Positions 14,173 through 59,702 of a DNA stretch of 64,000 nucleotides are shown piece after piece. The DNA comes from Lingula anatina (taxonomy: Eukaryota; Animalia; Brachiopoda), in the NCBI GenBank assembly GCA_051362555.1, contig CM120640.1, positions 558,001-622,000 of the forward strand. Reading direction: 5' to 3'. The notes beneath the pieces are model-generated. The model had not been told where the DNA came from. It was given only the letters and a program-made list of their open reading frames with translations, and searched no databases. Position 1 is the stretch's first letter, and each line of letters starts with the position of its first letter. Both the position numbers and the translations under genes were made by a program.

Positions 14173-14499
14173 GGATACCTTCTGCTCTTCTAGGAGACTG
14201 AAGTAGGACAACATTATGCCAGGAATGTGTATCAAAAGGAGTGCTTACGCATAAAATTCGTTCTACACTTCCCATTACAGTGGCCCCGTCCCTCTGGTTA
14301 AAATAAAAACACAATCCCCGTCGCAGTTAAACTTTAAGACAAAACTGTGAATTCAAATGCAACATCTATAAATGTGAGGCTGCGATCTCTCAAATACTGA
14401 ACCAGTTTGATATCAATGGAACAAAATATAGAACTGGAAATGGTCCCTTCTCATTCATTCACAATGAAGGCCTCGAGGCTCGAGTGGAAGGAACTACAA

Positions 14500-19996: not shown

Positions 19997-22900
19997 ATGG
20001 TGGAGCTGAAAGTGTGGGTGGACGGGATTCAGAGGGTCATCTGTGGTGTGACAGAGTCCACCTCTTGTCAGGATGTAGTCATTGCTCTGGCCCAGGCCAC
20101 AGGAAGGACAGGGAGATTTACCCTTATAGAAAAATGGAGAGACAATGAAAGATTGCTCTCCCCTTCAGACAATCCTCTGAAAATCCTTCACAAGTGGGGA
20201 GAGTATGCTCATGAAGTGCAATTTGTTTTACGTCAAAGACAAGAAGGCAAACAGAGGACTGATAAGTTTTTACACAATTTCACACCACCACCCTCCCATG
20301 GTAGTGTTGGCGGAGGCATTAGTGCAACCAGTATCAAAAAATCCCTAACATTCAGTGGTGCTCACAACTACAGTTTTCAAACCAAACCAAGTGCAAGAGT
20401 CCAACCTCGTCATGCTATACAAGAAAACTCATCTCTGGAGAGTCTGGAGGAGGAACCAAGTGCCTCGGACATTCCTCTCTCAAAACACTCTACAGAAAAC
20501 ATCAGTACATCTTATGCCAAATCAGGAGGCCCACCCTCATCATCCTCGTCATACTCCTCTTCTCCATACAGTAGTTTGGACAAAAAACATTATCAAGGTG
20601 CTTTCCAGCGAGTGACAAATTCAAGTGCAACTAATTCCACCCTTGGTGGAGGACAGAGCAGCGGTCAGCCGCAAACTTCTGCCCTTTTCAGGTCCCGCAA
20701 TCAGCCGTACCCAGGGGTGGGAAGGTCCCCTGTGGCCAGTATCGCCCCTCAAGTGGGAGGAGGAAGTTGGAACCATGGGCACTCACACACCCCTAGTCCT
20801 TTGACTGACATAGAGAAAAGTCCCCAAGAATTTGCTCAGTTTGATCAAAATCAAAATGCTAAAGGAATTGTTGAGAATCATCAAGATTTAGAGGAATTAG
20901 ACTTGGACCAGAGCTTAGCCGAGGAAGCAGCTAAACTTCACATAGACCAAGCATTTGGTTTGGACGAGTATAGAAATATAGTCCCTGCTAAAACCCAAAC
21001 TGACGACCTCATTGAACTGATTAACATGCAGCACGAGAAGCTGGTAAAACAAGAGGCACAGTTAAAAGATCTGGATGAAGGTAAGAGCCATTGTTCTTGG
21101 TTGATTTTAACCATGCATAACACTCTAGTTCATGCCTCAATGCATTGAGTGATGACCGTGTAGGCAGCTTCTTGATTCACTGAATATTATGTGCAAGAAT
21201 GAGATTACAAGTTTATGGATATTCGTCACGCTATAAGGGTGAATACCAACACTACACAAATAGTTAAAAGACCATTCACAACATGTGCTGGTATTTCTTC
21301 AGCCTCTCTGGTGCCCTCCTTTCTTACACTGACTGGTTTAGAAACTGACAGATCCCCATAGCTGATGATAGGGTTGAGTTCCTCCCTTCACTGTTGATTG
21401 GGCATGACACCACCTTGGCATGCTCTGCTAGGTGTTTTGTACTAGTACATAGGGGAATATTCAGGTTGTATTGTAGTATAACAAGGAGATATTCAAATTG
21501 TTTTGTTGGAGGCCCTGTCCCATCTGTGGCTAAGGAGGGCTAGATAAATGTGTTTGAACAGAGTCAGTAATGACCTCCTCACTTTTTATATGGCATGATG
21601 AGTGGTTTGATGTCTTCAAAGGAGTATTAAGTTCACAATCTGTGTGAAGTGAACTACATATTTTTTGCTATTATAGGTTCCAAGCTAAGCCCCCATGTAT
21701 TATGATCACCCAGTACCTCCATTAAGCCTAGGTCCCAACTACGTTTTGGACGCATGGTTTTTTAGGTTCCTTGCGTCCGGCTAGGACGTAGCAAGATCGC
21801 AAGGAAGAAATCAATGCACAATGGACGTGCTCCTCACACACAAACTCCCACGTTTTCCCCATTTTTTTGGCCATAGACCACACGTAGCAGCCTGTACGCT
21901 CGGTTGGGACCTTCTCTACTTCTTCTCTTAGTGTGAACATTCCCATTGCAAACTGTGTAGTTAGGGGGTTTCTGGTGGCAACATTGTGATTTATTTACTG
22001 ATAACCTTCCTGATTGATCTATTGATTTTATCAGGTGCTGTGCCCTTGGGAATTCAGACTTTCTCACAGTGTAATTGAAGTTTGGTAAATAATACAAATC
22101 AAAGAAAATAAATATATTTCTGTCATGTTAGTTTGGGGGATTGATGAGAACAAATTCATAAATTGTTTGCATAGATAACTTTTAATGTTTATTAGCATGT
22201 TGAGATTTATAAGCAAGATTTAAACTAGCTTACATTCTTGGCTGGTCATTTGCTCATAACACCATAAGTCTAATAGAAAGTTGTAAACCAAGAACTTTAA
22301 AGAAAAACACATAAGAAAAAAAGGGAACTGCATCAAGTGTTTTTAGGTTGATTTATGTAGATTAGGCAAGTGTTTAAGCCACATGCTACAGTTAAGAAGA
22401 TGTGTGGTAGAGTTTTTATCACTGACTGCATGCTTGCCCTGCTATGTATTTAGAAGCACCACCCAGAATTCTTCTCTGCACATACTGTAGGTCAGCAGAG
22501 AGAGAGAGAGAGGAATGGGGAATGGAAGGCTAGCTAGATACCTCTTGCTTCATCCTGTCTGTTATAAAAATCAGTAATTTCTTTGATGTTGATGAAATAC
22601 AAATGTCAGATTTATTCCATTTACAAGATATTTTATCACAGAAAAGTTTTAGGCAAAAATGGTTTAATTTTTTTAAAACTAAAAAAAAAAAGAAAAGATT
22701 TTAAACAATATTTTTTCAGTTTTAAACAATATATTTATGGATCCTATTTTGGCTAAGATTTTACACTGTAGTGCAAGTATTAGTACAGGAGTTCAGGAAT
22801 TTCTAGTTCTTCATGGGTGCATGGCTTTGACACTCCAGGCTGTGTGATTTCTGGATTATCAGCTAGAAATGTGGAATACATGTGTAAACTTGATGACATA

Positions 22901-24786: not shown

Positions 24787-27700
24787 AGGGAGAGCCTAGC
24801 ACCCAAGGTCATACTGTCTCGGGTCTTTCTTTCAAAATATGACATACAGGGGTAACCCAGCATGCTAGCACCCCTAATTTTAGGGAGAGGGGATATATAG
24901 ACCTGTTCAGTTATGATGACAGGTACTATAGACAGGGGGGGAGGGGGGGCTGTGGTATGTGTAAATTATGATGGGGGGGGGGGGCATAATGTGTTTTGAC
25001 AGTAGATCAAAAAGTGTGTGTGAACATGCATGTTTGAGTACTTGCGTTTGTAAGTAATCTTGTATTTCCACTACAAAGAGAAGTGATCTTTGCTGCTCCT
25101 GGAGTAAAAAAATTGAGAGTTAATCATCTTAAGGTGAGGAGTTGAGTTATCTGTTGATATAGACCAGTGTCAGGATGGGATGCGTTACTGAGAAGATGGT
25201 CCACGTTGACGTAAATTAAGATATGTGTTGATGTAAATTAAAGTTGATGTTGAGTAGACAAGATACACAGGTGATTTCACCCTCTATCACCTGTGTCAGC
25301 CAGGTAGCAGAAATGAACCAGATTCTTTAGATCTTATCTCATTAACGGCAGTACTGTACTGACCAGCAGGATATGATAGGTGGACAAGAGAATCCTGGCC
25401 TTTTTATATACTTACAGTATTCATATTGTGGTAGAGAGAAAAAAAGACTGATGATTTCCATTTCTGGGCTACAAGCTAGGAATGGTGATAAGGAGTGATG
25501 ATAAATACCTCATTTTATACGGGGAATTTTGTTAAATCAGAATTGATTGTAAAGATTTTCTCAGTTAACACCACAGTTCAGGAAAAGAGTGTTTTTTATA
25601 AATACTTCAGAGTTTACTGTTTTTGGTATAAAAATGTAATTTACATGAAGTGCATATTTAATCATTAAACCAATTGATTCAATGAACAAAGTGCATCCAA
25701 CTTTTGGTAGCCTTTTCCTTCAGAAGAATTCACAAAGAAACTTTTCAAGTAATTCCAAGACCAATCTCCTTGAGAATTAATAAAATGCTACTTCAGCATT
25801 AAAAATTGGAACTTCACCAATGGCTTAGGAATGTGGATACTTAACCTTGCAGCAGAATCCATTAACCTTGGGAGCTGGGGACCTTAGGCTACTGGAAATG
25901 TCTGCAGAAAACTTGCTGTGGGTTTTGGCATCAAAACAGAAAATAATGTCATTTTCCTCTCCTTGGGAGTAGCAGCATCAATATCCCTGATGAAAAATAA
26001 CTGGAAGGAGTAGTGCCAACATGCACATTTAGTCTAATTAACTCCTAGAACCTAATCACTGTCAATTAACTAGAATTGATTGTTTTACAGTCAGTTTTTT
26101 ATGCACTGGAAAACATTTTGTAACATGTCTAGCAGATCTGAAAAGTATTTAGGTTTTGGGCTGATTTTGGCTGTTAAGAAAATATTCCGTTCAATACCCC
26201 CAGAGCCTCTGGGTCAAGCACCCTAATAGAATTATGGAGGAATATATCACATCATATGATGCAAGTTGGGATGTTGAATAGAATTGTAAGAAACATAGCA
26301 GTACGGGTGGTGGTAACTGTGTTTACATGTGACAGAAATAATGAGTTGGGGTTTGTAAAAACAGGGTTCACTTAGAGACCATTCCCAGAGACTATCGTAC
26401 TAACTTTGGATTGATCTGTCTCCAAGGGGGCTCTCACTAAATTGCTATCAACTTTAGCATGTCCACTGAAGCTGTTAGAGGGTAATTAACTATCGTTTAG
26501 TGGCTTCAGTGGCATGCCAGACATATAAGCTGTTTAAGCTAAAAGCAATTAAGTGAGAAACCCTTTGGAGATGGGTCGATCCAGTTAGATCGATCTAGGC
26601 ATGGGAACACAGTCTTATTTAAACAGTTGAACATTGGTGGCTTAAGACAAACTTGCCAGGTAGTTGGTCTAATGTTTAAAGGCATGCTTAGACTGTTTTA
26701 AGAAATCAAATTACTGTCCCTGGCTTAGATATTGCATATTTACCTAAAGACAGAAGTTAAGGAACTATTAACACAGCCTTGTGGAGAAACTGTTTTTTAA
26801 AAATTTATTCATGGAGTAAATTTTAGTTTGGAATTTGCTGGAATGGTGGCAGATAATTACTAGTAAATTGTTGAAGTTTGAGGAGAATTTTTCTTGTATT
26901 TTTCCATGCCAATATTCTGCAAATGACCAATTTAAGAACTGAAATGTTTAGTACAGCTTCAAGACTTCTGTCTTTTCTCCTCCAGGTCCCATGAAAGAAG
27001 TCTTAAATTTAGGTTGTTATATCTAGTTACTTCAGACATGCAGTTTATTTGTGATTGAAATGGAAAAAATTGCACTGAAAGATCTCATTTTCCCCCATGT
27101 TGTAGAGGCTGCCTGCTGAGGCAGAGAACTCTGCTGTCGTTGCCGCGGGAACTCTGCTTAGTGTTTCACAAGTTGCCGTGACAAATCTGACCTCATGTTA
27201 ATTGTTAAATGTAAAAAAACAGTTGGAACTATTTGGAAATTTGATAATTTTGTTTAATTGTAGAATTGAGTAAAACAGACTTTCTTTTAAAGAAAATGTA
27301 GACAAATTCCTGAAACACAAGCTAAACAAAGAAAAAGTTGACAGGCTGGGTGGAATAATTACAAAAGTTTAGTTTTAAACAAATGAAATGTGATGTTTTT
27401 CTTTACATTAAGGGCATTTGTTCCAATACTACAAATTATTTTGGTGATGCCCTGTAGATTTGACAACAAACCATTCCAAAATGCATTTCCTAAAATTGTT
27501 TATTACAAGCTCTGAGTATCAAAGATGCAAAATCACAAGTGACAAGACAATTTGATTAAACCTTAATTTTTCTTTAAATAGTGTATTTTTTTCTCATTTT
27601 TGATGTTTTAATTTTTTGCAGAGATACAGTACTGGGAGAAGCAAGATAGAGAAAGTTCTCACCAAGCTTCCCTTATTGAAGATGAAATCAAAAGACTTGA

Positions 27701-30012
27701 ATATGCAAAAGAGCAATATGAACTAGAAATGAAAGACACTGATTCAGTGAAACTGGAAGAGGAACTCCAGCTGTTACAACAAAATGACAAAACATTGCAA
27801 TCTGAAATTACGTTATTTAAGTCCAAAACGTCAAACAGTGAAACAGATCTATTACAGTCTAAGAACAAAATACGGCTTTTGTTGGATGACATAGACGAAG
27901 AAAAACTTGCACTGAACAAAAGACAACAGGAAGAAAAGGAAGAAGAACTCAAGATTTTATCCGAGGTTTCAAAATTACAGAAAGAATTGAAAGATCTGCT
28001 TACGGAATCTGAACAAGAGCGCAGTAAGGTTGAAGAAGTTGAGAAAGAGGTCAAGGAGGTGGAGGAGTCATTAATAACAAAAAAGAAGGAAATTACTAAC
28101 CTTGAACAAGGCATCAAAACTGTCAATTTAGAGCTGTTCATGAAGACCCCTACTGAGCTGCATACAGTGGAAATTGCTGACGGTTGGTATTATTTGTATT
28201 TTTTTTTCTTATGGGAGGGAATGGTTTTCTTGAAAATGAACTTGTTGTGGGAGTTAGGACAAAAAAGTTATGAGGATAATCTGTATAAGACATGTTGGAA
28301 TTCGTTTCCATGTAACATATTACACTCAGACTGAACTTGAAATAGTTGCATATTGTCACATCTCTGAGTCAGAAACATCAAATTATCCTATGAAGAACTT
28401 TTCAAAGAAATGCCCATTGGAAAATGTCCACCCACCCAATAGGATCTGTTCATACTTCAATATCTGATCCACATGAATTCCACACACAGATAATTAGGCT
28501 ATTTGTGAAAAGCTTTCTGAAAATTATTTATTGTATGAATTTGTTTACTCTTGCTAGCTTGAATGTTGCATGTTAAATTTAAACTTAAGTAATGGTAGTC
28601 ATAGTTATAGTAGAAAATAGTTCTCAAACTTGACGGATTAGTATTATTTATGAGGAAGAAGTCAAGCCTAGCTGTTTATAATTCTAGTGCATGGGGAAGT
28701 GTATTGAGTTGCAAGAGTATGTATTGAAGTTAGTATGTATGTATTCACCCTGTATCTACCTTATTGTTCAGGCTGAAGTCTGTCCCCCCTTTACCCTGTA
28801 TTGTAAGCAGTTTTGTCTTCTTACAGTCAGCCTTAGATGTGAAATAACATCTGCATTGCGTTTGTCACAACTAACACAATCTAAGTGGGTGCAACCACCA
28901 CACTCCTCGTAGCAGTTTAACCTAACTAAGGCACTCTGTTTAAAACAAAGAAATTGTGTCCAGAAATTAAACTGTCAGTTTATTCTACAAGTTGGCTGAG
29001 ATGATAATCCATTTTCTTTTCTTTAATTTGATGTGATTTTGTGTGATTTGATTTTTATTTCAGACATTTTAAACAAACTAAATAATGCATGTTCAGAAAA
29101 ATTCTCTCAAACGTCTTTTTCTCTCTTTTTTCTTCACCAGAGTTTTAGTGGATACTGTAGTTTCACTAGAAGAGTAAGCAACTTGAATGTTGATTTTTTG
29201 TTGTGGTTTTTTGAACTTTGTTTTTTGCTTGTGTTTGTTTAATTAGGTAGATTGCAAAGAAAAAGGAATATCATATACACCGTGTCTTTTCTTTGTTTAA
29301 CTCGGCACACTTCAGTAACATTTTCACTCATTTATGTGGCACCAGTACACTAATGACCATATACATGTAGCTGCTGCCAGTGGAAGGGCATTTAGCATAA
29401 TTTTGTCATGTGATATGGAATGTTATCAATGCCTGAGTTTATTTATGTTGTATTTCATTCATTAAATTAATTTAAAACCCATATTTATTAATACAGCAGG
29501 AATGTGTTTTTGCTATTTATTCGTATGATATCATAAAATATACTCTTAATAGAATAGTATGAATGATTAAATAGTCATTTATATATTATGTGTACAATTT
29601 TGCATATTTTGATATAATTGCCAAATAATTCATCGAGTGAATACTTTTTGATCTGCTTCTGAAGCTTTAAGAATTGCTAGAGCATGCCTTTTGACTGGCT
29701 GATTCAACAGTTGCATTTAAATGAAAGGCAAATAGTTTCTCTTAGTAAAACAGAGGAATGTCAAACTTTGCTATTGTCTATTAGGTTATGTTTCAACTGT
29801 TTTGCCTGTTGCATTTGAACTGGCGAGTGACACTTCTTTAAACATAAGAAACATCCATAATTTGACTGTTCTATGCATTCATTTTAGGTTTCTCCTCAAC
29901 GCGGCCCATGTCTCCCATCCCCCCAGGTAGCACAAGAAAAATGACCAGTCTACCCCAAAAGCTGGCAGAGACCGCGCCCACTGCCAGAAACCCTCAAGGT
30001 CTGTGGGTGTGA
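19997..30012 (+). CDS. RASSF8: N-terminal Ras-association domain protein, RASSF7/RASSF8 family (~589 aa)
   Basis: Exons 19997-21080, 27622-28182 and 29888-30012, with phase-1 GT-AG introns. It has the N-terminal RA domain [54 protein letters not shown], a coiled-coil second exon, and the C-terminus PGSTRKM...RNPQGLWV* resembling the vertebrate RASSF8 ending NPEGIYV. It is probably a pro-orthologue of RASSF7 and RASSF8. Confidence 0.93.
21730..21912. mobile_element. MITE-like insertion in a RASSF intron
   Basis: 10 bp terminal inverted repeat AGGTCCCAAC / GTTGGGACCT around a CpG-rich interior that contrasts with the flanks. Confidence 0.5.
26373..26615. mobile_element. Palindromic (fold-back) MITE family copy
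   Basis: Long imperfect inverted arms (TCTCCAAGGGGGCTCTCACTAAATTGC / GCAATTAAGTGAGAAACCCTTTGGAGA; CCACTGAAGC / GCTTCAGTGG), similar along its length to 48412-48668. Confidence 0.8.
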
Positions 30013-32591
30013 CCCTGCGTCCTCTGGGTGTGTGGGTGTGTGGGTGTGATGGTGATCCCTACCAGGAACCCTCAGGATTTGTGGGTGTGATGCTAGTTAT
30101 CTTCAGTCGTGAATCTTCTTGAGATCTTGGACACCACATCAGAACTCATCCTCATCATCATCTTCTAAGAATGGTATTTTTCATTAGCAAAGAACTAACT
30201 TTATATTACAGTATACCGCAATATGTATTTATATCTATATCCTGTTGGCAGAGTCTGCCCCCAGGATAATAGTACCATTGGGTTTAGAAACTTCTCAATT
30301 AAACTTAGAAATGCCACACGTGTCATATCTTTTGCTTTGGGCGCTTCTATTTTTAATCTGAGAATTTGTGCTGGTCCAGTGCCTTAAAAGTCTATGCAAA
30401 GAATGAATGAATTGTGATATTGTGATGTAAATGGAGGCAAGCAAATGTTTGGATTGAGGTGAATTTTGACTGCTTGCAATTTTGTTAAAAAATGATAGTT
30501 TACCAATTTAACTTTTAATATATTAAGACTTGTTTTTTGACTGTGCTGATCAGCCGTTGACTGAACATTTGTATGATAAAATTACTTTTTTATTAAAGAT
30601 TTGCCTTTATCTGTATATCATTAATACAAAAAATATATATAAACTATATCATTTTTTAAAAAATTGTAATGATGAAGGTGATTGACATTTCATTGATGTA
30701 GACGTGCAGTTCTCCCGCCGCAGAATTCAAGACCTACATTTCCAATTCTTAGATGCATCCAGAAAGGACATTGATCATTGTAATGAAGCATTATTTTGCT
30801 ATTACTTTACAAAATCATAGAAAACATTATTGCCATAAGTCTTGTAGACATTGCCATGTAACATTTAAGAAAAATAGAGGTGTTATTTCTATATCGCATG
30901 AACTTTAATAAGCAATATCATTTCATGGTTTGAACAGCTTTTGTTTTTCAATTTTCATTAGACAAAATTTATTATGAAAGAACAATTTTATAAGATTTAA
31001 TGTCAAACTAAAAAGCTAAATGCATGACTCAAAATGGTGATAAAGCAAATATTAAGACTGAATTGATATCAAAATATTTCTTTGTAAACATTTTATCATA
31101 TTTTTTATAAAAACAATTTTTCTGACAGTGGACATACTTTGCTTCTTTATCTAGAATCTGTGGTTTATAAAATTTCTGAAGCGTTCCATTTGCTTTTTGT
31201 GCAATCTTGCCATACGCAGGTGATGATCTTTGACTGCAGTTTTGGATATAGTAATTTTACATACAGGTTTTCATTGCAAATGGCTGAAAAACTCGGTTTC
31301 TGGACATTTACTTTTCCTTTGTCATAAGAAAGCTATTACCAATAATCGGGTGCTCTGATTATGTCAGTTACTAAGCTCATGTACAATACTCTTCTGGGTG
31401 AGTATTCACTTTATTACCACAGAAGGATAAATATCCAAGGGATAAAAATCCAGGTTTATGCAACAGAGAACAAATGGATGAATGTTTTGAGAACACATGA
31501 ATATTAAGTTTCTTGTATGTCTTTTGTATCTTTAATAGGAGTGAAAAATTGGCTGAGTTATAAGAAATACAATTTTTTCAGTGGAAGTGCAGGTAGTAGA
31601 AACGATCCCAGAAATCTTGCAACTTGGAAATGATTTTTCTGGTGTTCATTGAGGCATCAGTTTTGAAAAAAAATAAATAAATAAAATAAAACTATCTAGC
31701 ACATAGCTTTGGCTACCTGTGGTTTTCCTGATATATATGCTGAATTAGTTATAGTATAAATGGTCAGAATATTTATATAGCTTGAGATTTTATAGTTCTC
31801 ACAAGAACTTTATTTCATGCTTTATTATGTATTCATAAATGCTAGACGGTATTAATTCAATTTTCCCTCATTGTAAATAGAAGAATGAAAAATATAAGAT
31901 CAGAACTTATTTAGTTATTTCTTTTTATTAACTTCTATGAGTGTAATAAATTTTGCATATTTTTACTATCTATGCAACAGTATTAATACTTCTATGAATA
32001 CAGATATTGTTTAAAAAAAGGATTTGTACTTACTCTGTCTGATTTCATTTCAACTTATTGCAAAAAGTTTAAAGAAAACCTTCCTGAGTGAAACCTAAAA
32101 GTCCACACTCTTACGTCCCATAGCCCATCATTTGTGAACTGTGGCTTAAGGCGTGGCAGGGAAAGGGTTATCCAGCAGAAATGGCTGAAAGAACAAAGCG
32201 AGATCTCCTAGTTCTTCTTCTTTCATCCTGTTACAGTAACGTACATTTACACCAGTTCATTTTTCTGAAATGGTATGAAGACATCTTTTGTTAATTTCTC
32301 GGCTTGATTCATTGGTGGAACAGATGTATTTTTTACAGTATGTTGCTTATTCCCAAAGAAGCTTTCTTGGAAATCAATATCTATTAGTCTGTTTTTTTTG
32401 TCCTGCCCTATGGCTCATAGCCGCTAGTGGTTCCTTACAGTGTTTTAGCTATTGTTATCCACAGCATGTAAAAGTCCTGTTTCCACACGTCCCTGGAGGA
32501 CTGAATTGTCCAGTGTTATGGCGGGTAATGTGTTGGCAGATAAATGCCACGACTGTATTTAGAGCCCACAGCAGAATTCTGCTCACTGCAG

Positions 32592-32682
32592 ACGTGGAAA
32601 CCTCTATTGTCACTGTCACACGCACAAGATATTACGTTGTATCTCTGTGCAGAATAACAGTGACAATCGTGGCTACCATCTC
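32592..32682 (-). ncRNA. mir-210: miR-210 family precursor, copy A; predicted mature 3p CUUGUGCGUGUGACAGUGACAA (32628-32607)
   Basis: The minus strand reads AUUGUCACUGUUAUUCUGCACAGAGAUACAACGUAAUAUCUUGUGCGUGUGACAGUGACAAU, a ~62 nt hairpin with an additional basal stem (UGGUAGCC/GGUUUCCA). Its 3p arm carries UUGUGCGUGUGACAG, the same 5' region as fly miR-210 and sharing UGUGCGUGUGACAG with human miR-210. Confidence 0.92.
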
Positions 32683-34877
32683 GCTGCCACCTCCGGGAGT
32701 CCGGAACTTTGGTAAATATGGTTGCCTCTCTCTCTCTGAGCCTTGCGCACGCTCACTGTTCACTAGCCTGTACCTACGCCAGTCGCGGCTGCAGCTGGGG
32801 CATTATTTGTAATAATAAAGTTCTCACTGGTACGAGCCATAAATTATACCAAACTGCCTTCTCATGCTAATAGGAGAACATTAACACGTTTGCAGCATAT
32901 AGATCATCCAAGGTGAATGAGAATTTCAGAAGACTACTGCTGTCGTTATACTTACTTGACCTCTGCTACAGATTTGTCTGCTGATCTGCAAATTGTTCTA
33001 TGTCCAGACAAACACATGAATGGTTTGATTTCACATTTCCTAACTAGGCATTGACAGATATCTTTTTTCACAGAGATTTTTTTGCCTTCTTTTGGAAGAG
33101 TGAAGGTCTTCTGAGCCAAATTTTGCCTTTTTTGTACATTTTATTTCTTCAGTGTAAAGCTGGAAATACTTGGTTAACACATTTTTATTGTAATTAATTC
33201 TTTTTTGTGGTTTTTCAAGTTACTTTTTTTATGCTTTCAAGTTTATCTACAGCAGTTCTATTAAGTGAATTCAGTTCAACTATGTAATCCTCTTAGTTTG
33301 TTGCATAGATTTCACTAAACATCATTTCACACACACACAAAAAAAGGAAATGCAAAGTAAGATTTTTTCACGAAATATTGTAACTTCTTCATATTTCAAA
33401 ATTGTGCAAATAAACATCAGGTTTGATGTCCAGTAGAATAAGATATGGACAAACAGATTAATTTGTAATATTTAGGAGCAATCAGGAATCGTTGGTATTG
33501 TCAAAGTCCTGTAAGCCTCACAAGGGGGGTAACTGAGTGCTAAAATGAACCACAAATGGTAAAAGAAGGGCTGTCAAAAAACCAAGTCGGGTCATGGATT
33601 GACAAATTCCAAAAGCATTTTTATCCCAAGTTGTCGTGGTTGCAGTGGAAGGTGAATGTATTTGTATCACAACGGACTGATGGAGAACTGAGCTTACATA
33701 CAGCTCAAAGAGAGACATAAATTGTAGCGGAAAGCTGGAGAAGTGATTCTGTAGCAGCATATGGTGGGCAGGTGATGCCAACATATTTCAGTATTGTTCC
33801 CTTGCATACATTATGTAAATAATATACCTTTTCCAGCTTAGTAATGATTTAGTTGGGAGATAACAAGAACACTATCATCTTTTTGCAGCTGGAAATTTTG
33901 CTAACATGTTCGAACAGTTTTAAAGTACTGTTTTGCTGCGTACATAATATAGTGAGAATTATTAATTATATTTGATAAAAGCTTTCAAATCTTGGGCATG
34001 TCTTTTAATTTTAAAATTTTGCATTTTTGACAGAATGAAGAAAATGAAAATGTTTTTGATTTTCCTTTGTCTTAAAGACTGACAATTATTCCTCTGTAAA
34101 ATGCAAAACAAAACAAAAAAATAAAATAAATAAACTTAGACATTAAGGTTATGTATTGTTGCATGTTTACATTTACATCAGAAATAAACCTTACAATTGT
34201 TTTGGATAATCAGTGCTGTTTGAACCCTCTATCATTATAACCTGGAATATTCTTGAAAAATATTTTCTTGATGCTAAAAGCATTTCAAAAAGAAATTATT
34301 ACCCCTGCCAAAGAAGTTGTTTTTGCATTTGTTGGTTTGTTAGTTTACAATCTTACTCAATAATTATGGTAAGATTGAGATAAAAAATATCAGGATGGGA
34401 CAGGAATGGACTAACTTAGAACCACATAATTTTTGGTGGTGTTCCGTTACTTGGTTACAACATAGAAGTAGAGAAAACTTCTATGGTTACAATGAAACTG
34501 CATTGGTAGAGAAGGCAACACTGACTGATTTTCTTATTCGTTCTTTAAGTTCTACAAGTTCCAGATTTATTTATTTTGCCCTTATTTTGTAAAATGTGTA
34601 CTTTTTGTGATAATTATGTTACACAAAAAGGTATATAAAATAGAGACAAGGCTGAATGAAACCCAATTGACCAAGAGAACTGCCAGTTTTAAGGTGAGTT
34701 AAGCCATGAAGAAATGGACATATTGACCTTGCAAGTGGCAAACAAGGTCAGATCTTTCGGAAAACTTTTTAAAAGTTGTTAAAATATAATCGGAGGTGAA
34801 GAGAAATATTTGGATACATAAATAACAGACAATGTACTACAAAATATACATTCAGGGATGTGCCAATGGCCAGCTCC

Positions 34878-34908
<31 letters not shown>

Positions 34909-35529
34909 ACACACACATTGGCCACACCCCTCTTTTTCAATTAGCCATCACGTTTTTGTTGACCCCAAAAATAAAAAAGAGCACTGGCTGACTCACAGCT
35001 GTTAGGTCCATTCTAGAAGGCCATTGGCCTTCCATACTTTGGAGTATTTGATTGTTGTAGACGAATTAACCGATTGGTTGCCATGACTACCAATGGCTGT
35101 GGTTGATGAAAACTACTTGATCAGCAGTAAATCTTGTCTTGGCAAGCCCTTGGATGACTTCTTGTGCTGATGGGCAAATGATATGTGTTTCTTTTTAATC
35201 TCCATGTCTCTTAAACCCTCTGAAAAATTTCATATGATAATCCCAGACTTCCTATAGTTGTACTTCTCTCAGATGCTTAGTGTAATGGCTGGAAACTCGG
35301 TGAACTCTGACGGTCATGTTCAGAACATTAAACTTGTGCTCACAGATTAGATAATGAATAGTAACTTGCTCATGGCAAGATTTACCTGGGCATTCAAGGA
35401 GTAATTGATTTTCGTCTACAGTACTTGAGCAATCATCATCAGTAAGATTGTTCATGGTTCCAAAGAATTGTATTAACTGATATTTTAGTGATATTGTAAT
35501 CACTTACTTCATTAATTAAATACATAATT

Positions 35530-35755
35530 TTTTTTTGTGAAGCAGGTAAGCTGTGCTCGTCACAAGAACATCATCAGGCTGAATGCTCACAGGTCATTGG
35601 GTGTTAGAAAACCTGTGAACAATTCTCACCAATTTGCCAATTACTACCCCCAGTGAGAATAGTTCACAGGTCTACCAACAGCCAACGACCCGTGGGCATT
35701 TAGCCTGATGATGCTCTTATGACAAGAGCGAAAGTTGGCTGTTCCACTAAAATTT
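35530..35755. mobile_element. Fold-back/MITE-like inverted repeat element
   Basis: Arms GCTCGTCACAAGAACATCATCAGGCTGAATGCTCAC / GTGGGCATTTAGCCTGATGATGCTCTTATGACAAGAGC and ACCTGTGAACAATTCTCAC / GTGAGAATAGTTCACAGGT. Confidence 0.7.
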
Positions 35756-37705
35756 TGTTCAAAAGTACGTGATCACTGTCACTAAAATATCAGTAAGTTG
35801 AGCAATGATTGTTAATGACATTTGTCTTTACAAGGTTTCTTATCAACAGTGATCTTTATATGCATATAAAGTAAGTCTTCTGTGTTGTTAAATGATAAAT
35901 GAAAAAGATGGATCATTTCCTTCATCATTTTAAGTACAGAGTATGTCATATCTTTATTTTTGACCGAATGACAAAATTTACATATTTTACTAATGTAAAG
36001 ACTGTAACCATTTTTCAAGTACACTATCTTCATAATAAAACGAAAGTGAGTTCACAAACTTTTATTAATTTTTAAATGGATAAATTGTATCTACTAGACC
36101 TTTTTGTAGCTAGAAATAAATAAATGACTTAAAATCAAGCAAAAAAATTCTGGAAATTTCAAAAATTTTCCCTTCATTACCAGGTTATACTTTTCAAAAT
36201 TGTTGAAAAAATTGATCCTTAAACATATTTCTGAGTTCTAAATTTCTACAGTTATAATGAGAAGTTGAATTCTGTTGCTCTCTATCTTCATTATGAGAAT
36301 GACTGAAAATTTAGAAACTTTGAAAATGAAAAATAAAAAAATTGTCAATAGTTTTGGATAAAGAGTAACTTGGTAATACAAGAAAGTGTTAAAATTTCTT
36401 GGAAATTTATTTAAATTTGCTAATATAAAAACTTTACCGGTCTCAGGTGGTTTTAAATATTTTGAAATATCTTTATTATCCTCTGTGATTAAAATAATAA
36501 TAATAATAATAATTTTTATGTGAAAGCAAAATGCATAAATAAAAAAGAATAGTGGTAAAATAAAAAATAAAAATTTTAAAAATGAAGATAAACACCGACA
36601 TTAAGGTGCCTGGTTCTTGGAAGATTCAAGAAGAGACACATTTAAAAGATCAATGGTTAAATTATATTTATTTCGATTCAGTTACAAGTATTGCAACATC
36701 TTTTAAAATTTTTACTGTAAATGTTACATATGTATTTAATATGTGAAGGAAGCTAAACAAATTTACATATAGTATGTGTAACACTTTTTATGCAAAATTA
36801 GTCTTGTCTTACATGCTTTAACTGTTGCAATTGAACTGTAACTAAACATTATAGATTGTGACAAAAAACATTTAAACAAATTAGTTGTTTGTTAATAGCT
36901 CAAATTAACCTTGGCCTTTCAACCACTACCCGACCACAAAGATTGCATCACTTATATTTAACATTATGCAATACCTTAGAACCCATGAAGAATTCCAATG
37001 AACAACAGTGCATAATAAATTTAATTGAAGTTTACTGATTTTGTTAAAAAAACTAATTTTTTCTAATTTAAACTTTTAACAGTTAAAAAATCTATATATC
37101 ATATAAAGCAGTAAAATAGAATAAAACATTGAGAACAAGCTCCAACAATATTTTTCATTACTATCCAGACAAATCTATTCCTCTGCATTTCAAATTGTCG
37201 AACCCATCCTTAAAAGAACTTTTACATGACCCAATGCATGTAGACAGCACTAGTCCTTTTCCTCCATTTCCTTGTGGCAGACATACTTGTGGTCAACCAA
37301 TGAATATACACATATGAAACCAAATAGAAGGTGGTATTTCACCATTCTTTTTAAGTGACCATGTCTCCGACTTATGCTCATTTGGGAAATCAAAAACAAA
37401 GGCTTAATTCATACCACTCTTGGTTAACAGAGACACAAATGTGATGCCAGACAATGGCCAATCAAGCGATCTAAAAAGGCATGTGACTGATGTCAAAACT
37501 TTGCATTTGCCTCATACAATATGTCACATATTTCAGTTGTCAGGAAGTGATACATCTGAAAACTATCTAATGAAAAAACATGAATACATTTGTCTACTTT
37601 GGGGGACTTTTACAAGAATAATTAAGGTCACAGTTTACTAATAAATTGAGACTAGCCAGGATTATTTGGTAAATAACGTTTTATGAATAATTTTCTATTG
37701 TTTAC

Positions 37706-38067
37706 CAGACATGCTGAAACTGTAGATCCGATCGGTCATGACCAGGAAAATTTGTCTGGACCAGTAAAAAATGGAACTTGGTCGGTCCAAAGGACCGACA
37801 AGGGTTTTAAGAACTGCAATTTTGAATTTACAGTCATCATTCGACATACTTCACTAATAAAATTATATAAAACCCAAAGCGTTTTTTCCCTTCCATTTCA
37901 AACCTATCACATTCACAAACAAAGTAAGCTACCTTATAATACTGGTAGTATCTGTCTCAAACGAATAGGGTGATTTTCGGTCTGACAAAAATCCATTCAG
38001 TCCGGCAAATTTTTCATGACTGCCAGTCCAAATGTCTGGCCATTCTGAAAAGTTTTCAGCATGTCTG
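37706..38067. mobile_element. MITE (non-autonomous DNA transposon)
   Basis: Terminal inverted repeats CAGACATGCTGAAA / TTTCAGCATGTCTG, flanked on both sides by GTTTAC (apparent target-site duplication). Confidence 0.8.
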
Positions 38068-39600
38068 GTTTACCAGCCCTTGCTCTTAAAAGTAAAGAGC
38101 TAAAAAATATCTCCTGATCTTATATTTGTATCTAAGATCCCAATTTTTCTTCACTTGACATGAACAATGAGGGTGGTCATATGGACACTACTTGTATTTT
38201 CAGTTAGATAAGAACATTTCTGAGAAGAGATATAATTATATTCATCACCTAATATGGATGTGCAATGTCTTTGAACTATAAGCCCCAGTTATCTAAAGCA
38301 AAGCTATCATGTGAAGATATAATACAACAAAAACCCACCCCCTGTCTTTTAAGCTGTAAACCAGATAAATGCTGATTTATTTCTGATAATACCACCAATG
38401 TTATCTTTTCACATAGTTTAGGTCACCTCAGCTCCATGGTGACATTAGGAGAGTGACAACCATGTTTTAAATGTACCTGTACTCTGGATGAAATGTGCCA
38501 TACACTAGAACTATAAGTCTAGTTCATGTAAGGAGATTCAGTAATAATTGCTTAAACCAGTTCAGAACTCATACAGAACTGTTTCAATGTGTTTAAAGAA
38601 TGGAACATCTCCATGGTGCTGATTGAAGTTTAACTTTTAGTATACATCACTGGCACAAACAATAGATCAAAATTTGATTACAAAGTATGTTTAAATGCTG
38701 GTATTAAATAAATAAAAAGGGGGAATCTAAGAAAGTTTTGAAACAGAATTTGGTTCAAGCCAGAAAAGGTGATTATATGATTAGAACTAAGAAATCTTCA
38801 AAATGATTAAATGCTTCAATAATTAAGTCGGCTCTGGTATTTGTTAGAATGTTATTACCATACTCAGAATGTTAGCTATGAAAATAACATTTGACAAGCA
38901 GAGTTGGGGTTGACAAGTGCCACATGATGATGTAAAAATGTACACTTTTAAGTTTAAAAACTCTATAAAACTTTAATAACACTACGGACAGAGTTTTCAC
39001 ATATATGCATGTAAAAATATATAAATATATATTTAGAACGACTCAAAACTTATCTTCAGTGCCATTTCTAGGTAGACTTTCATTCCAGCATTCTATACAC
39101 TTACTTTTCTAACTCTAGACTTTCATATTCTAAATAAATCTAAAAATCTGTGATTCATTAAATACGGCCGTAGAGGAAGATTTCTCGATAACTTGTTTCT
39201 CTTTCTCAGGTGTGCACGGAGTCTAAATGAATACAGGTAAAACTATTTGTCACGTTTCAATAACCCCTCACATATCTCTCTGCTGTGACACATGTATCTT
39301 AGCATGAAATACTAAATAAACACACTTAATGTCTAGACTGATGGTTATCGACTGTAGCCAAATGGTACAGGGACCGTTTGTTGTGGATTTGTGCCAAAAA
39401 ATGTGATTCCAGTACTCACTTTCATTTAATTCATCAAATAGATATCATTTACTGATGCAATCCAAAAAAAAAGCAGTTGTGGATGTGTACATTAGAGTCT
39501 ACAAGGTGTAAAAAAGTTCATAAACATACGGTTAGCTACAATTATGTCCTGTGCGTTTCTCTCATAATTCTGCTGTGTCTTACCACCAATTATTGAGCCT

Positions 39601-39669
39601 TCACAAAGGTCGCTGTCTCACGCACAACATCTCACATTGTGTTTGTGCCTGAGACAGAAACACCTGTGA
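39601..39669 (-). ncRNA. mir-210: miR-210 family precursor, copy B; predicted mature 3p UUGUGCGUGAGACAGCGACCUU (39627-39606)
   Basis: The minus strand reads UCACAGGUGUUUCUGUCUCAGGCACAAACACAAUGUGAGAUGUUGUGCGUGAGACAGCGACCUUUGUGA. It folds with stems CUGUCUCA/UGAGACAG and GCACAA/UUGUGC, a basal UCACA/UGUGA stem and an apical UGUG motif. The 3p arm keeps the miR-210 seed UGUGCGU and the GACAGCG block. Confidence 0.85.
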
Positions 39670-42099: not shown

Positions 42100-42540
42100 A
42101 CCTTGCCAATTCACGAAATGAGTCCATGTTTTAACAACTTACTTTGTTACTTTTCTGCACCCGTCACTGTCAAACTGGCGACGCTGCCGAACCGCTGCAA
42201 GGTCACCTTGTTGCTTGTGTTTTGCAGAGTTTAAATTTGACAAAAAAGCTTTAAAACAACACAGGAGACTCCCTAATCATCGCCCGGGTGTGTGTAGCAG
42301 TGATATGTGACTTACAGCGCGACCCAAGTAGATTTTATTCCAACATATCAGCCGAACATGTGCTGCGCAAGGTATCCATGCATCATGTCACGTAGGAGAA
42401 TCCTAACCCGAGACACAGTGACGTCACGGAGGGATTCCCCTTCAGCCGCGTGCTATTTATATCAAGTGACCTTACCTTATATGGATGGTGGGGATTCCTG
42501 AGACCTGGTGTTGGCCTGACTGGGCTTCACGTTTTATTTT
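42100..42540 (-). promoter_or_regulatory. Candidate promoter and first exon of the miR-210 host transcript
   Basis: CpG-enriched patch with TACGTG on the minus strand (42389-42394), GTGACGTCAC (42418-42427), GGGATTCCCC (42431-42440), minus-strand TATAAATA (42454-42461) and CCTTATATGG (42475-42484). Minus-strand donors at ~42141 and ~42315 could splice to a strong acceptor (ttgtttttatctctgtag) at 39735, just upstream of hairpin B. Confidence 0.6.
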
Positions 42541-42901
42541 CAATCTACATGATTGAATAATGTGGCTCGTGATAACGATTGGTATTAAGGCATATATAAT
42601 TTTACTCTAAACATTTAGTCAAGTATGTATTAATGAGACAAATATTTTAACTAAGGAAGAAAGTGAGAAATGTATGTAATGAATGAACAGGCATCTCTTG
42701 CCCCACCTGAATAAATGACATCCCCTTAGACAAGGGCATCAAAGATGGTTCATCAGTCCCTCCCCCAACTTTCTAAGGATTTTTAACATTTTTGTGTAAA
42801 GAAGGTACCTTTTTATCTCAAGCATTGTTATTCATGCACACACGCACTTGACGCACGCACACAAATTAACATAATTTGTTGCCGGGTCATTGGCAATGAT
42901 G

Positions 42902-49037: not shown

Positions 49038-52000
49038 TTACTCCTGGGAGCTCCTATCACTGGCACTTTTGAGCAGCCTAGTTCTCAACTCAGCAGAGAC
49101 CATCCCTTCTGCACGTCTGAGCAATCTCGATGTGACCTTTGAGCTGACGTGACTGGACGCCACGCTGTGTCTGTCATGGCTCTTGCTCACTGACTTATGG
49201 TTTGTCATGGTTGTGCTTCGCCCACTGTCCACACTTTTTGTCACTTCCATTCCACTAGTTCTTTCTCTACTGGTAGGTCCACTTGGCTGCCTGGTTTTTT
49301 GAGACACCGTAGAAGGCCTGTCAGTGGAAAAGGATGAAAGCAATTCCCTGGTCATTCCACTTTGCTGGCGGCCACTACCTTGAGCTACAGTAGAAGGTCT
49401 GTGATAGCTGTCATAAGACAGAGATGAAGGCAGCCCGCTATCTCTGGATGCTTTCCCACTCTGAAGTTCTCTAATGGTAGTTTGTGAGTGAAAGTCTCTC
49501 CATGTGGCTTGACTGACTGACTCTCCCCTATGACTGGGGCTGGTCTGGCTGAATGCTACGTGGGTTTCTTTAGATTTCCTCTCATCAGTACTAGAACTCT
49601 TCACTGGTCTAGGGTAAGAAACTGGGTGTGCTGAACTCTCCATCTCTGTATCTCTTGATGTAGCATGTGATTTAGTTTCTACAGTCGTAAAATCATCATC
49701 GACTTCTAATATATTTTCTAGAACTGATACCTTTCCCATTTTGCTCATTTCGATAATTTTTGGTTTTCCATATACAAATTCTCCAACAGGCAACTCGGCC
49801 CTGGGTTTGGCAGGTGGTTGATGGACTGGTCTTTCCTTGTCTGTTTTTACTGGGGAGGATCTTTCTTGTCTTTCAAACTGTTCATATTCTTTCTTATGCT
49901 GAGATTTTTCCCTCTCTGCCTTGTGAATTAATTTGTCTCTGTCCAGTTTCACAATGAGCAGTTTTTCCCTATCAGTACTTCCTGTACCATCAACTTTTTC
50001 CCTGAGTTTGTGTACACCAGTATCTACTCTGTCCACATCTGTGTGAGATACGAAGCCTCTCTCTGCTATGTCCCCCATCTCCCCAGCTTCTTCCTCGGTC
50101 TTCTTCCTGTCATCCAAGACCTCTCCATACATGTTGAAGTCACTGAAACTGACCGAGGACTCGGAGGCAGTGTCCACTACACTGGGTGACTTGGTCCGGT
50201 AGCCACTCTCTCCAGACGTGGTCTGACCAGAGCTGACCTGAGCATGCTGGTCAGTGGGCAAAATCTCCGAGTCCGAGTCCTCAGACTGAAACTTCTGTGA
50301 TCCGAGCATGGTCTTCTCGCGGGTAATTTCAGGCTTCACTTCAGATCGTTTTGAATGGCGATACACAGCTTCTCCTCTGATGTGGCGTATTTCCCTCATT
50401 GCACTTTCATGGAGTTTCCTGTGGAGCAGTCCGCGCGGGGATTTCTCATAGGACGGACTTGACAAGATGTAGTGGGTGCCTGCTTGGGTCCTCACCTTGT
50501 GCCAACCTCTAAATCTGAAAGTAATAAAATATTTGATAAGATTTAGTGGGTGCCTGCTTGGGTCCTCACCTTGTGCCAACCTCTGAATCTGAAAGTAATA
50601 AAATATTTAATATCAAGAAATAGGAAGAGTACTGTAGTTCCATGGGTGAAAGTTGTAAAAACTAAAAATCCTGAAAACATAGCTTGCAATTTCTCATCAC
50701 ATTAAGACCATATGAAAAAAATGATTAAAATGAAGACTTGAAATCTTGAAATCAGGCATAATCCTGAAAACTTTCACCCATGTTACATCAAAAGAACTGA
50801 CATGTAAGAACTGAAGTGACATGTAATTTTTTTACCTGTGGTGTATTGTCTTCAATAGTATATCATCAAAATTAGACGTCTTAGTGCTGAATTATGTTTC
50901 ATACTTTGTCAAATGACACATCTAGGGGAAGATTAAATTTTCATGATTTCACAGATGCCAAAGATAAAATTTACATCTTAGTATAAAATGTTCAGTCTTT
51001 TTCAGACAATATTTGGTCAGGTCTGTTAAATGGGGGCCTGGCACCATGCGGGCATTTCTGGCATACTCCATACCTGGCATCACAGGCCCTGGCATGAGAC
51101 GGGAGGATGCCCACATCTGTATATGCCATCTTATTAACAATACAATATGTAGATATACTCCATACCTGGCATCACAGGCCCTGGCATGAGACGGGAGGAT
51201 GCCGACATCTGTATATGCCATCTTATTAACAATACAATATGTAGATATACTCCATACCTGGCATCACAGGCCCTGGCATGAGACGGGAGGATGCCGACAT
51301 CTGTATATGCCATCTTATTAACAATACAATATGTAGATATACTCCATACCTGGCATCACAGGCCCTGGCATGAGACGGGAGGATGCCCACATCTGTATAT
51401 GCCATCTTATTAACAATACAATATGTAGATATACTCCATACCTGGCATCACAGGCCCTGGCATGAGACGGGAGGATGCCCACATCTGTGTACGCCATCTT
51501 GCGGAGGAACTGTTCTGACGGTGGCTTCTTTTTCTTCACCTTTGGTTTTTTGGTGGGTGGAGGAGGTGGTTCTGAAAAAGTGGATAAATTGTTAATCAAT
51601 TATAATAACTAAGTAACGTATCAGGATTTATTTAGATTATTTTGACTTCACTTTTTGGTTTGTTATCACTGAGACAAGGCCGTTGTAGTGTCTTACTGAA
51701 CTCAGTTTTACATTTCTTGTCACAAGTCCATTTCATAACCAAATGCAGTGGGAATGCTTTTTAATGTGAAAAAAAAAAAATAATAATAAAAATAATGCAG
51801 ATACAAAGCTGAGTGTAAGAGACAGTTGTTACCTGGTTTTTGTTTTTCTTCCAGCCTCTCTCTGTAGCCTGGCATAAGGTAGTCCAGATCTGTGTCCACT
51901 AAATGTTGATAACGATTCTCCTGAAATGACATATGGGATATTGCCATGTGTGTCAATGCACCTTTGAAAATATTTCAGATTTAAAATCAGTAAATGTTAA

Positions 52001-55000: not shown

Positions 55001-55230
55001 TTCCCACTTTTCTTGAAATTGTAAATATTCCTGCATATAATATTATAAAAGTGGAAGTGTTCATAGCAAAACATTTTTTTTTGCTTTAATTATTTTTCTG
55101 TTTTTTTTTTTCTTTTTTTTTTGCTTTTTTCTGTAAATGTTAGTAATTCTGTCTAATCTGTTATAAAGAGGGCCATGTGGAGGATAAAAATTATATATTT
55201 ACCAGTTTTTACCACCAATAAATAAAGTTC

Positions 55231-55287
<57 letters not shown>

Positions 55288-57250
55288 CAGAACTACATTA
55301 GTGGTGGAATGAATGGAGGATTACCAGGTTCACTTGTTATATACAGTGAATTAACCACCCCTCTTAACACAAAACACCTTCCCTCAGCCACTCCTGTCTT
55401 ACAATGCCTTTTTATCCCTCTATGACAACAAGAACAGTGTCCATATTATAGCACTTCAAACACGTATCCAAGACGGCCTTACAGCAATGAATTTTAAAGT
55501 GTTTTTTCAGGAGAAAAGTTGTAAATGGTTTCTTTGTCCACATGACTGTATACACAAACTGTACAGCCAGCCATGACTGGTGCTTAGTTTATATACACAA
55601 CTGTACTTCCACTGTGGCAGTCAGTGTGATAAACCTCTCTGCCTACCAGTCCCTCAAGATACTAGGGTCTTAGGGTGAATTCACAAGGAAGCTATTGTGT
55701 ATGTGTGTGTGTGTGTGCATGTGTGCATCTGTGTGCATGTGTGTGTGTGTGTGCATGCATGGGATAAAGCACAACAATTGGCCACATACAAATGTATATG
55801 TACAATGTCAAATCTATATCTGTAATAGCAAAACAAAGAACTTTATATCATACATTGTAGCTGAGGATATAAAACCTCACTCCTCAACAAGTGACAACTA
55901 CAATCCATTGACTTCCTTTAGAACCATTCAGTAATTATTCTAATTATTCTTCCATGTTCATAGCTTACCTTCAATGCCCTGAGCACAATGTGTTCATCTA
56001 CCAGTATTCCCTTCATGTCTCCTGCTTCGTATACCTGGTAGGCTATCCTTACATCCTGCAGCTCTTCAAAGCTGAACAAAATAACATCGTCATTGAGCAA
56101 AACTGTTCATTAGCTTGGTAGTTGGATCATAAATGAAATTATCAAACACAAGCCGAAAAACTTTCACACCATTAGCTTACGGTCAACCTGGACGAAGGCC
56201 TTCATCAGACTGATATGAGTAGATGTTGACACCCAGTGACTGCTACGTGGTATAGGGGCCAGGACCTTCTTACGAATGTCAGGTAGATCAACCCCCCTCC
56301 CTATTCATCGGTTGGCCGTAAGCTAGTGGTATGAAAGTATTTCGGTTTGTGTTTGATAATTTTCATTTATAACATCGTCATTATTCTTTATATATGGGGG
56401 CATCACTCTGCAGGATTTCTTTAGAGGTCTGTTCACTGAATCTATTCTACTTCATAAATCAGTTTATTTTATCAGAACTTTTAATTTAGTTTAAGGGGAT
56501 TAAGGTGAGGTAAATCAAATTAATTTAGAGATCAATGATTAATACCCAAGTCAGGCCTGTGTGAGAAATCTAACAAAAGTACTAGTAACTACATTGTATA
56601 ATTTATATATCTGGTATGAAAATAATCTACTTCATAAATCAGTTCATTTTATCAGAACTTTCAATTTAGTTTAAGAGGATTAAAATGAAGTAAATCAAAT
56701 TAATTGAGAGCTCAATGACAAAGACATAAGTCAGGGCTGTGTGAGAAAACTACCATAACTAACTCCAGGTATAATATACTAAACATGAAAAATTGGTGTT
56801 ATACCAGGTTCAAATCATTATCGAATATATAAAAAATAAATGTCTATATAATTATCTTGACAAAAATCTCTAATCAGTGGCAGTGTAAACAGCATCAGTC
56901 TGTATCACCCGGTTACTCCTGAATGTCAAACATTTCTATATCCTGCCCTTTACCAGGGTTACACTGAGATTTTTCACTAGAATTCCAGAGTTTTTTTTTT
57001 TTTTTTTTTTGGCTAATGCTGTGCACGCTACTGTTCTGTCCAGTATACATGATGGATTCAAGCGTCCAAAGAGAATTTTAGTTCGGAATTGACATCATCA
57101 TTCTGCTGGCTTTTGTGTACGTGTGTGTGCATGCGTGGATGCATGTGTGTGACGGGGAGGGGGGGGGGGGGGAGAGGGGTGTACATACCTGAGAGCATGA
57201 TAGTCTAACAATCTCACAGCTCTCTTTACTACACATTGGTTCCAGTCTGC

Positions 57251-57282
<32 letters not shown>

Positions 57283-59647: not shown

Positions 59648-59702
<55 letters not shown>

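Follow-up and report, generated by a model that had tools for sequence, protein, structure and literature searches.

A mir-210 gene and a probable paralogue beside RASSF7/8 in the brachiopod Lingula anatina: a likely ancient gene neighbourhood

The window analysed here is a stretch of 64,000 nucleotides of Lingula anatina DNA (assembly GCA_051362555.1, contig CM120640.1, positions 558,001 to 622,000 of the forward strand), and the elements of interest within it are two hairpins of the mir-210 microRNA family, H1 and H2, together with a RASSF7/8 gene that ends shortly before the first of them (Table 1). Both hairpins match the family, the RASSF7/8 messenger RNA is spliced and read from the plus strand, and RNA of the minus strand is seen along the 3' flank of H1. 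Positions are those of the window. The RNA evidence comes from four of nine long-RNA runs (X1, X4, X5 and X7, three of them stranded), 6-25% of each, examined on 27000-36500.

The 19-nt cores of the mature arms lie at 32609-32627 (H1) and 39609-39627 (H2), a spacing of 7,000 bases, and the 9-mer TTGTGCGTG has two exact matches in the whole window, which are these same two loci. The preliminary description of the window had placed two hairpins about 7 kb apart on one strand, and both are found at those minus-strand sites with the 3p arm letters that it gave. Folding bears them out. As 91-nt RNAs, H1 reaches -34.4 kcal/mol (z -4.55) and H2 -38.8 kcal/mol (z -5.90), none of 200 shuffled sequences being as stable in either case, and at each locus the minus-strand fold is more stable than the plus-strand fold. 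A canonical precursor was taken to be an unbranched hairpin of about 60 nt with arms of 20-26 nt, at least 16 pairs and a loop of at least 8 nt; H1 measures 58-62 nt with 18 of its 19 core bases paired, and H2 55-59 nt with 17 of 19 paired, predicted arms of 22 nt and a loop of 13-15 nt. The Microprocessor motifs, basal UG and CNNC, are optional; in the register that starts with C, H1 carries both where they are expected (UG at -14/-13, CNNC at +16), and H2 has neither.

Two details of the first account require correction. The arms had been said to share a seed as they were written. As written they do not: positions 2-8 read UUGUGCG in the arm that begins with C and UGUGCGU in the arm that begins with U, and H1 and H2 would share a seed only if both arms start at the first U; the base preceding that U is C in 17 of 19 aligned hairpins and G in H2. 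The interval had also been called free of open reading frames, and a plus-strand frame of 177 codons between stops (32279-32812) in fact crosses H1. Neither this frame nor four others of 95-120 codons in the interval has a Pfam match, and plus-strand RNA depth is 0 in all four runs in the bin 32389-32705, which contains H1.

The assignment to mir-210 stands for both hairpins, weakly in the case of H2. A covariance model whose 17 mir-210 hairpins come from other animals, a set rich in invertebrates that leaves out H1 and H2, scores H1 at 45.9 bits (E 4e-11) and H2 at 24.2 bits (E 7e-5); the pattern that picked out those 17 had itself been modelled on H1 and H2, which leaves the test short of full independence and makes its E-values approximate. 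Apart from antisense images of the two hairpins, the next-best match of this model in the window reaches 8.4 bits, which excludes a third copy there. The core UUGUGCGUG.GACAG and the seed are intact in both, and 15 columns are invariant across the 19 hairpins. The first 23 nt of the H1 arm are identical in three distinct hairpins of other animals (L016/L040, L050 and L053), and the H1 variant is therefore a conserved one. Position 10 of the arm is A in H2 alone (1 of 19), and the star arm has a U opposite this A to form the pair. Comparison with Rfam gave a divided result. At the gathering score neither locus has a match; in E-value mode over 28000-49000 the mir-210 family RF00679 matches H1 at 25.1 bits (E 0.053) and H2 at 21.4 bits (E 0.74), two of 11 weak matches and both short of the 50 bits that Rfam sets for membership. 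In the MirMachine preprint, MIR-210 of Capitella likewise falls below threshold once Capitella is left out of the model. This case and the leave-out scores suggest that the low RF00679 values count more against formal Rfam membership than against the family assignment itself.

That mir-210 is duplicated here, as had been proposed, is supported. H1 and H2 have in common a 32-nt core at 81% identity, and their flanks are without alignable similarity, which indicates an old duplication and rules out H2 as a doubled haplotype. Duplication of mir-210 as such is common in animals and recurs: MirGeneDB 2.1 (Supplementary Table 2, PMC8728216) names one gene each in Lottia, Crassostrea, Eisenia and Branchiostoma and two, as here, in Capitella (Cte-P5/P6), Octopus and Euprymna (Obi-/Esc-P15/P16), Ptychodera (Pfl-P7a/b), Xenoturbella (Xbo-P17/P18) and Heliconius (Hme-P3/P4). 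Cephalopod entries marked v1 and v2 are read here as alternative 5' ends. The Drosophila mir-969/mir-210 pair is also a two-hairpin cluster with a member of this family, although its partner is an unrelated young microRNA (PMC4238352). For Lingula the same table names a single Lan-Mir-210, of the same family (RF00679) and from this species or one very near to it, which has, like the window hairpins, a 3p mature arm and the UGUGCGU seed in the U-start register; it differs in being one catalogued gene, against two hairpins here that both lie under the Rfam cut-off. The supplement of MirGeneDB 3.0 (PMC11701709) places the MIR-210 node at Bilateria and, in the part available, carries no per-gene Lingula names. 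Thus, one hairpin of the window is very likely catalogued already, and we infer that it is H1, the table giving names only; the other, probably the diverged H2, looks unannotated.

The protein of the RASSF7/8 gene is 99% identical to Lingula anatina XP_013410894.1 (P0121), which NCBI names RASSF8. It combines the N-terminal RA domain PF21712 with a C-terminus of the NPxGxWV type, as expected of an N-terminal RASSF7/8 protein, and a GxW[VI] ending occurs in 71 of the 124 proteins compared; the class is assigned by domain, C-terminal end and NCBI name rather than by a tree against RASSF9/10. The stop codon (30010-30012) is 2.6 kb from H1, so that the gene on the plus strand and the hairpins on the minus strand stand tail-to-tail, as first described. 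RNA reads over exon 2 have loose ends from exon 1 at 27620, a 1705-nt GT..AG joint is spliced in three of the four runs, and plus-strand depth continues through the bin 31438-31754 of the 3' untranslated region (UTR) in all four. Three further observations concern this gene. Its coding end is partly repeated after the stop (30010-30090), with a second RNPQG-like stretch; at 30025 the RNA reads differ in length by 8 bases; and P0122 (LOC106157474, on another scaffold) is a protein of 380 amino acids, 98% identical to RASSF exon 1, which is probably allelic or a partial duplicate.

Transcription of the opposite strand is seen immediately beyond the gene. RASSF7/8 reads in the three stranded runs have their first mate on the minus strand, and in the bins 32072-32388 and 32389-32705 first-mate-plus depth is 6.55 and 4.43 in X4 and 3.32 and 0.75 in X5, falling to a trace in the bin 31755-32071. 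Between H1 and H2 minus-strand RNA is absent from the bins 32706-35558 of X4 and X5, and at the 3' flank of H1 it is found in two of the four runs, with none in X1 or X7. This RNA is likely to be the 3' end of the primary microRNA transcript. An estimate that assumes flat depth puts the end of coverage in X4 at 32603, which is the predicted Drosha cut, and this coincidence is only a hint. AATAAA signals stand at 31945 on the plus strand and 31924 on the minus strand, and the 3' ends of the two transcripts lie within a few hundred bases of each other.

The hairpins are intergenic with respect to the next gene, LOC106174045, since its coding span ends with the stop at 49038, 9.4 kb from H2, and a location inside that span is thereby ruled out. 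They may form a polycistronic cluster, whose hairpins would be co-oriented within about 10 kb and carried on one transcript; H1 and H2 are co-oriented and 7.0 kb apart with no gene between them. Upstream of H2, at 2.8 kb, is a candidate promoter of the host transcript. The CpG-rich stretch 42001-42500 has an observed-to-expected CpG ratio of 0.88 against 0.30 overall and the second-highest CpG count of the 500-nt bins of the window, and RCGTG motifs stand at 42389, 42448 and 42528. Five such motifs occur in 42150-42900 where 1.96 are expected, a marginal excess reached by 6% of resamples. A long inverted repeat between the hairpins (35575-35735) has a weak match to Rfam mir-4880 (29.8 of 100 bits); just some 40 of its bases are covered by RNA reads, whose ends are loose at either side, which suggests a dispersed repeat.

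Table 1. Features of the window relevant to the mir-210 hairpins and their neighbours
Feature	Position	Strand	Basis
RNF141-like RING gene, head-to-head with RASSF7/8	11467..14214	minus	RING exon; other exons from translations
RASSF7/8 coding exon 1	19997..21080	plus	Pfam PF21712, E 1.7e-13
RASSF7/8 coding exon 2, probable coiled coil	27622..28182	plus	tblastn of P0121; RNA reads
RASSF7/8 last coding exon, ends NPQGLWV-stop	29888..30012	plus	GT..AG joint; C-terminal profile E 5e-16
RASSF7/8 3' UTR, end approximate	30013..31950	plus	AATAAA at 31672-31685 and 31945; RNA depth
Transcribed H1 3' flank, limits approximate	32050..32605	minus	first-mate-plus depth in X4, X5
Hairpin H1, predicted pre-mir-210	32606..32665	minus	fold, covariance model, conserved arm
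H1 mature 3p arm, predicted	32606/32607-32627/32628	minus	
H1 lower stem	reaches about 32598-32672	minus	
Hairpin H2, diverged mir-210 paralogue, predicted pre-miRNA	39606..39662	minus	fold, weak model score
H2 mature 3p arm, predicted	39606-39627	minus	
H2 lower stem	reaches about 39598-39672	minus	
Candidate host-transcript promoter	42150..42560	minus	CpG-rich, TATA-like box 42454-42462; composition only
LOC106174045 (P0125, 939 amino acids, uncharacterised), without Pfam family	49038..61752	minus	

The position of these hairpins can be set beside the human genome, where MIR210HG had been described as lying immediately downstream of RASSF7 on the opposite strand. The two human genes lie on opposite strands, a few kilobases apart. 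The order itself is confirmed by a published table, which reads HRAS, LRRC56, LMNTD2, RASSF7, MIR210, LOC143666, PHRF1 (PMC6607050, Table VI). In the human arrangement RASSF7-MIR210HG/MIR210-PHRF1 (11p15.5), as in the window, mir-210 directly follows an N-terminal RASSF7/8 gene. The human locus differs in having one hairpin and in its flanking genes, which are HRAS, LRRC56, LMNTD2 and PHRF1 in human and AGBL5, RNF141 and LOC106174045 here. On the far side of RASSF7/8 the window holds the RNF141-like gene, and human RNF141 lies on 11p15. In a frog table the genes rnf141, rassf7 and rassf8 are all labelled with linkage group CLG I (PMC8789304); because RNF141 adjoins RASSF7/8 here and carries the same label, the neighbourhood appears to keep old associations. 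The RNF141-RASSF7/8 pair may itself be an old neighbourhood, as both members are CLG I in this frog-amphioxus table. The frog order is given there as hras, lrrc56, ifltd1, rassf7, phrf1, irf7, and mir-210 is not shown in that table. Taken together, the adjacency of RASSF7/8 and mir-210 is probably an inherited bilaterian gene order. The earlier proposal that the linkage predates the protostome-deuterostome split is thus plausible, being supported by brachiopod and human, and it is qualified by the other contigs and linkage labels considered below.

The distribution of the pair in other animals was followed through a pattern scan of metagenomes, which gave 91 loci; the leave-out model assigns 45 bits or more to 25 of these (17 by construction), which represent 20 distinct hairpins. 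RASSF was found at none of the 91 by tblastn or by three profiles that recover all three exons of the window gene, and none was found at the pattern loci in prokaryote genomes (two loci) or viral contigs (two loci). Informative contigs, those with a distinct true hairpin and at least 2.6 kb downstream of it, number three (L019/L031 with 5.0 kb, L040 with 6.2 kb and L044 with 4.3 kb). The downstream neighbours are instead a TPR gene (L031), PLAT and GMC oxidoreductase genes (L040) and chitin-binding genes (L034/L044). Two further loci, L037 and L079, passed the folding filter and were dropped as chance matches, with at most 15 bits or no leave-out score. On L031, an AT-rich animal contig, mir-210 stands tail-to-tail with the TPR gene (spans 277-852 and 5010-5087), presumably TTC17. 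In frog, ttc17 shares the label CLG O with Mir-210 (PMC8789304). On L040 (4096-6311) about 1 kb separates an H1-type mir-210 from an opposite-strand PLAT-domain exon and, because the PLAT domain is incomplete, an intron of that gene may contain the hairpin in antisense orientation. An annelid origin of this contig, with its H1-type arm, is a weak guess from a related protein in the transcriptome of a gregarine whose host we take to be a polychaete. In Drosophila, mir-210 and RASSF8 lie on different chromosomes.

Long retention of the pair had been read as a sign of functional coupling, a step that these data do not bear out, and we consider such coupling unlikely. The simplest form of it, direct repression of the adjoining RASSF7/8 messenger by miR-210, has proximity alone to recommend it. 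MicroRNAs act in trans and need no linkage to their targets, and the UTR interval 30013-32050 holds no 6mer or 7mer-m8 seed site in either register, so that targeting through canonical sites is largely refuted and the idea as a whole is highly improbable. The absence of UTR sites, together with the absence of RASSF from all three informative contigs, argues against an obligatory link. A different form would have an ancestral adjacency held in place by shared cis-regulation, either through mir-210 enhancers or hypoxia-response elements that also drive RASSF7/8 or through interference between the convergent 3' ends. Human data lend this some weight, as deletion of MIR210 lowers RASSF7 and the locus makes chromatin contacts to it (PMC12217331), human RASSF7 rises in hypoxia (PMC2922839), a review connects MIR210HG, HIF-1a and RASSF7 (PMC13433495), and snail miR-210 is up in anoxic hepatopancreas (PMC5054212); in the window the RCGTG motifs of the candidate promoter point the same way. 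However, the human effect extends over about 11 genes rather than RASSF7 alone, snail foot muscle shows no change, and miR-210 of the fly, a sensory-organ microRNA, shows no hypoxic induction (PMC6343102). HIF control is shown at the human locus; in the window the RCGTG motifs are at marginal excess, RASSF messenger is present in four of four runs against two of four for minus-strand RNA, and the pair is kept in none of the three contigs. Shared cis-regulation is accordingly a doubtful explanation, and the fuller proposal, in which the bilaterian ancestor had a convergent unit with shared and possibly hypoxia-responsive cis-elements, the human cis effects are its remains and Lingula has a second, unannotated working mir-210 on the same transcript, is slightly more doubtful still.

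The reading that joins these parts, with two mir-210 hairpins on one non-coding primary transcript, in an inherited bilaterian position by RASSF7/8 and with no obligatory link between microRNA and gene, stands at about an even balance as a whole. Under it, H1 and H2 would likely be cut by Drosha and Dicer from a single transcript of about 10 kb, which would start in the CpG- and TATA-containing region near 42.4 kb and end at about 32.0 kb. H2 would be an old tandem duplicate whose arm differs at position 10, outside the seed, so that both microRNAs would repress the same seed-matched messengers if cut in the same register. The gene order may have survived because the two 3' ends nearly touch and offer a small target for a harmless break; the Lingula genome is slowly rearranging. 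Several arthropod-like lineages and one that is probably lophotrochozoan would have lost the order.

A number of observations weigh against this joint reading. The placement of the promoter is a guess from composition. The X4 and X5 data comprise 84 and 77 reads in all with no read-end pile reported at the predicted cut, and the flat-depth estimate for X5 ends coverage at 32461. If H1 is the catalogued copy, H2 is not among the names of MirGeneDB 2.1, and its 24.2 bits are no higher than what very large collections yield by chance pattern matching (L007 at 27.1 bits and L092 at 23.9 bits), so that the case for H2 rests on position, fold and intact seed. A working H1 beside a decaying or silent H2, a question independent of synteny, is to be considered. 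The single Lan-Mir-210 entry, the weak leave-out score, the G before the arm, the A at position 10 and the missing UG and CNNC would fit a silent copy. Against this, the seed and long stem (z -5.9) are intact although the flanks have diverged beyond alignment, the change at position 10 is matched by a Watson-Crick partner, and the predicted arms and loop have normal precursor geometry; a silent H2 is possible, though less likely than not. Also to be counted against the joint reading is that human MIR210 deletion, which lowers RASSF7 and about ten other neighbours, mostly in hypoxia (PMC12217331), favours some link in cis.

The remaining adverse points concern gene order, and they form the case for an adjacency that arose by chance twice, with mir-210 joining the RNF141-RASSF7/8 block separately in vertebrates and in Lingula. 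Adjacency is so far known in two lineages, one brachiopod and the vertebrates, with no third found; RASSF is missing downstream of mir-210 in all three informative contigs, which have other neighbours, although longer gaps are possible and the contigs are short; and the far-side neighbour is LOC106174045 here and PHRF1 in human. Mir-210 is assigned to linkage group O with hras, lrrc56 and deaf1, against group I for rassf7, rassf8 and rnf141, and the chordate microRNAs placed on ancestral groups all stayed there except Mir-33 (PMC8789304), so that Mir-210 and RASSF7/8 may lie on different amphioxus chromosomes if the placement used amphioxus. Yet the O and I labels may rest on different methods, and a double coincidence needs two separate moves to the same neighbour in the same orientation. 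Our rough estimate of its frequency is about 0.3% (about 30 bilaterian families, two sides, about 25,000 genes), rising to between a few percent and about 10% if both genes were in one linkage group. One translocation, in amphioxus or in the vertebrate stem, together with losses is a cheaper account of the labels than a double chance encounter and is favoured; chance twice over is improbable, if slightly less so than shared cis-regulation. No publication on an invertebrate RASSF7/8-mir-210 linkage was found in the full-text literature, which covers few subscription papers, and the parts available of PMC4238352, PMC5054118, PMC11468086 and the MirMachine preprint hold no synteny data.

The rest of the window adds several observations on the flanking genes. 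The RING exon of the RNF141-like gene (12592-12711) has its best match in RNF141 structures (E 3e-10), the next family following at 1.5e-4, and searches with two exons of this gene gave no usable match. Tandem repeats of 58 bp (12453-12735) and 122 bp (13100-13349) duplicate exon edges of the same gene, and a CpG-rich stretch (14251-15250) between it and the start of RASSF7/8 (19997) may serve both genes as a promoter. AGBL5/CCP5 (cytosolic carboxypeptidase 5) is represented by exons at 293-3132 on the minus strand (E 8e-26), and a tandem array at 5996-8720 has a unit of 146/291 bp in about 19 copies with a 91% match. Within LOC106174045, a 92-bp tandem repeat (51063-51500) and a 74-bp repeat (50459-50612) copy exon ends.

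The locus is a real feature. It consists of a microRNA gene already known, a probable new paralogue, and a neighbourhood with RASSF7/8 that is likely ancient and would often have been lost; with one hairpin known beforehand, the paralogue and the neighbourhood are what is modestly new. Old neighbourhoods of microRNAs and genes are few, the usual examples being Hox-mir-10 and hnRNPK-mir-7. If true, the brachiopod-human pair adds another and fixes the ancestral home of mir-210; if the adjacency is chance, the finding shrinks to an ordinary tandem duplicate. H2 would in itself be a small correction to the curated microRNA set. Lingula burrows in sediment, and flies are without hypoxia control of miR-210, which makes this brachiopod apt for asking whether such control is ancestral. 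Human MIR210 deletions act largely via neighbouring genes that include RASSF7 (PMC12217331), and an ancient linkage, if true, would single out RASSF7 as a candidate cis target.

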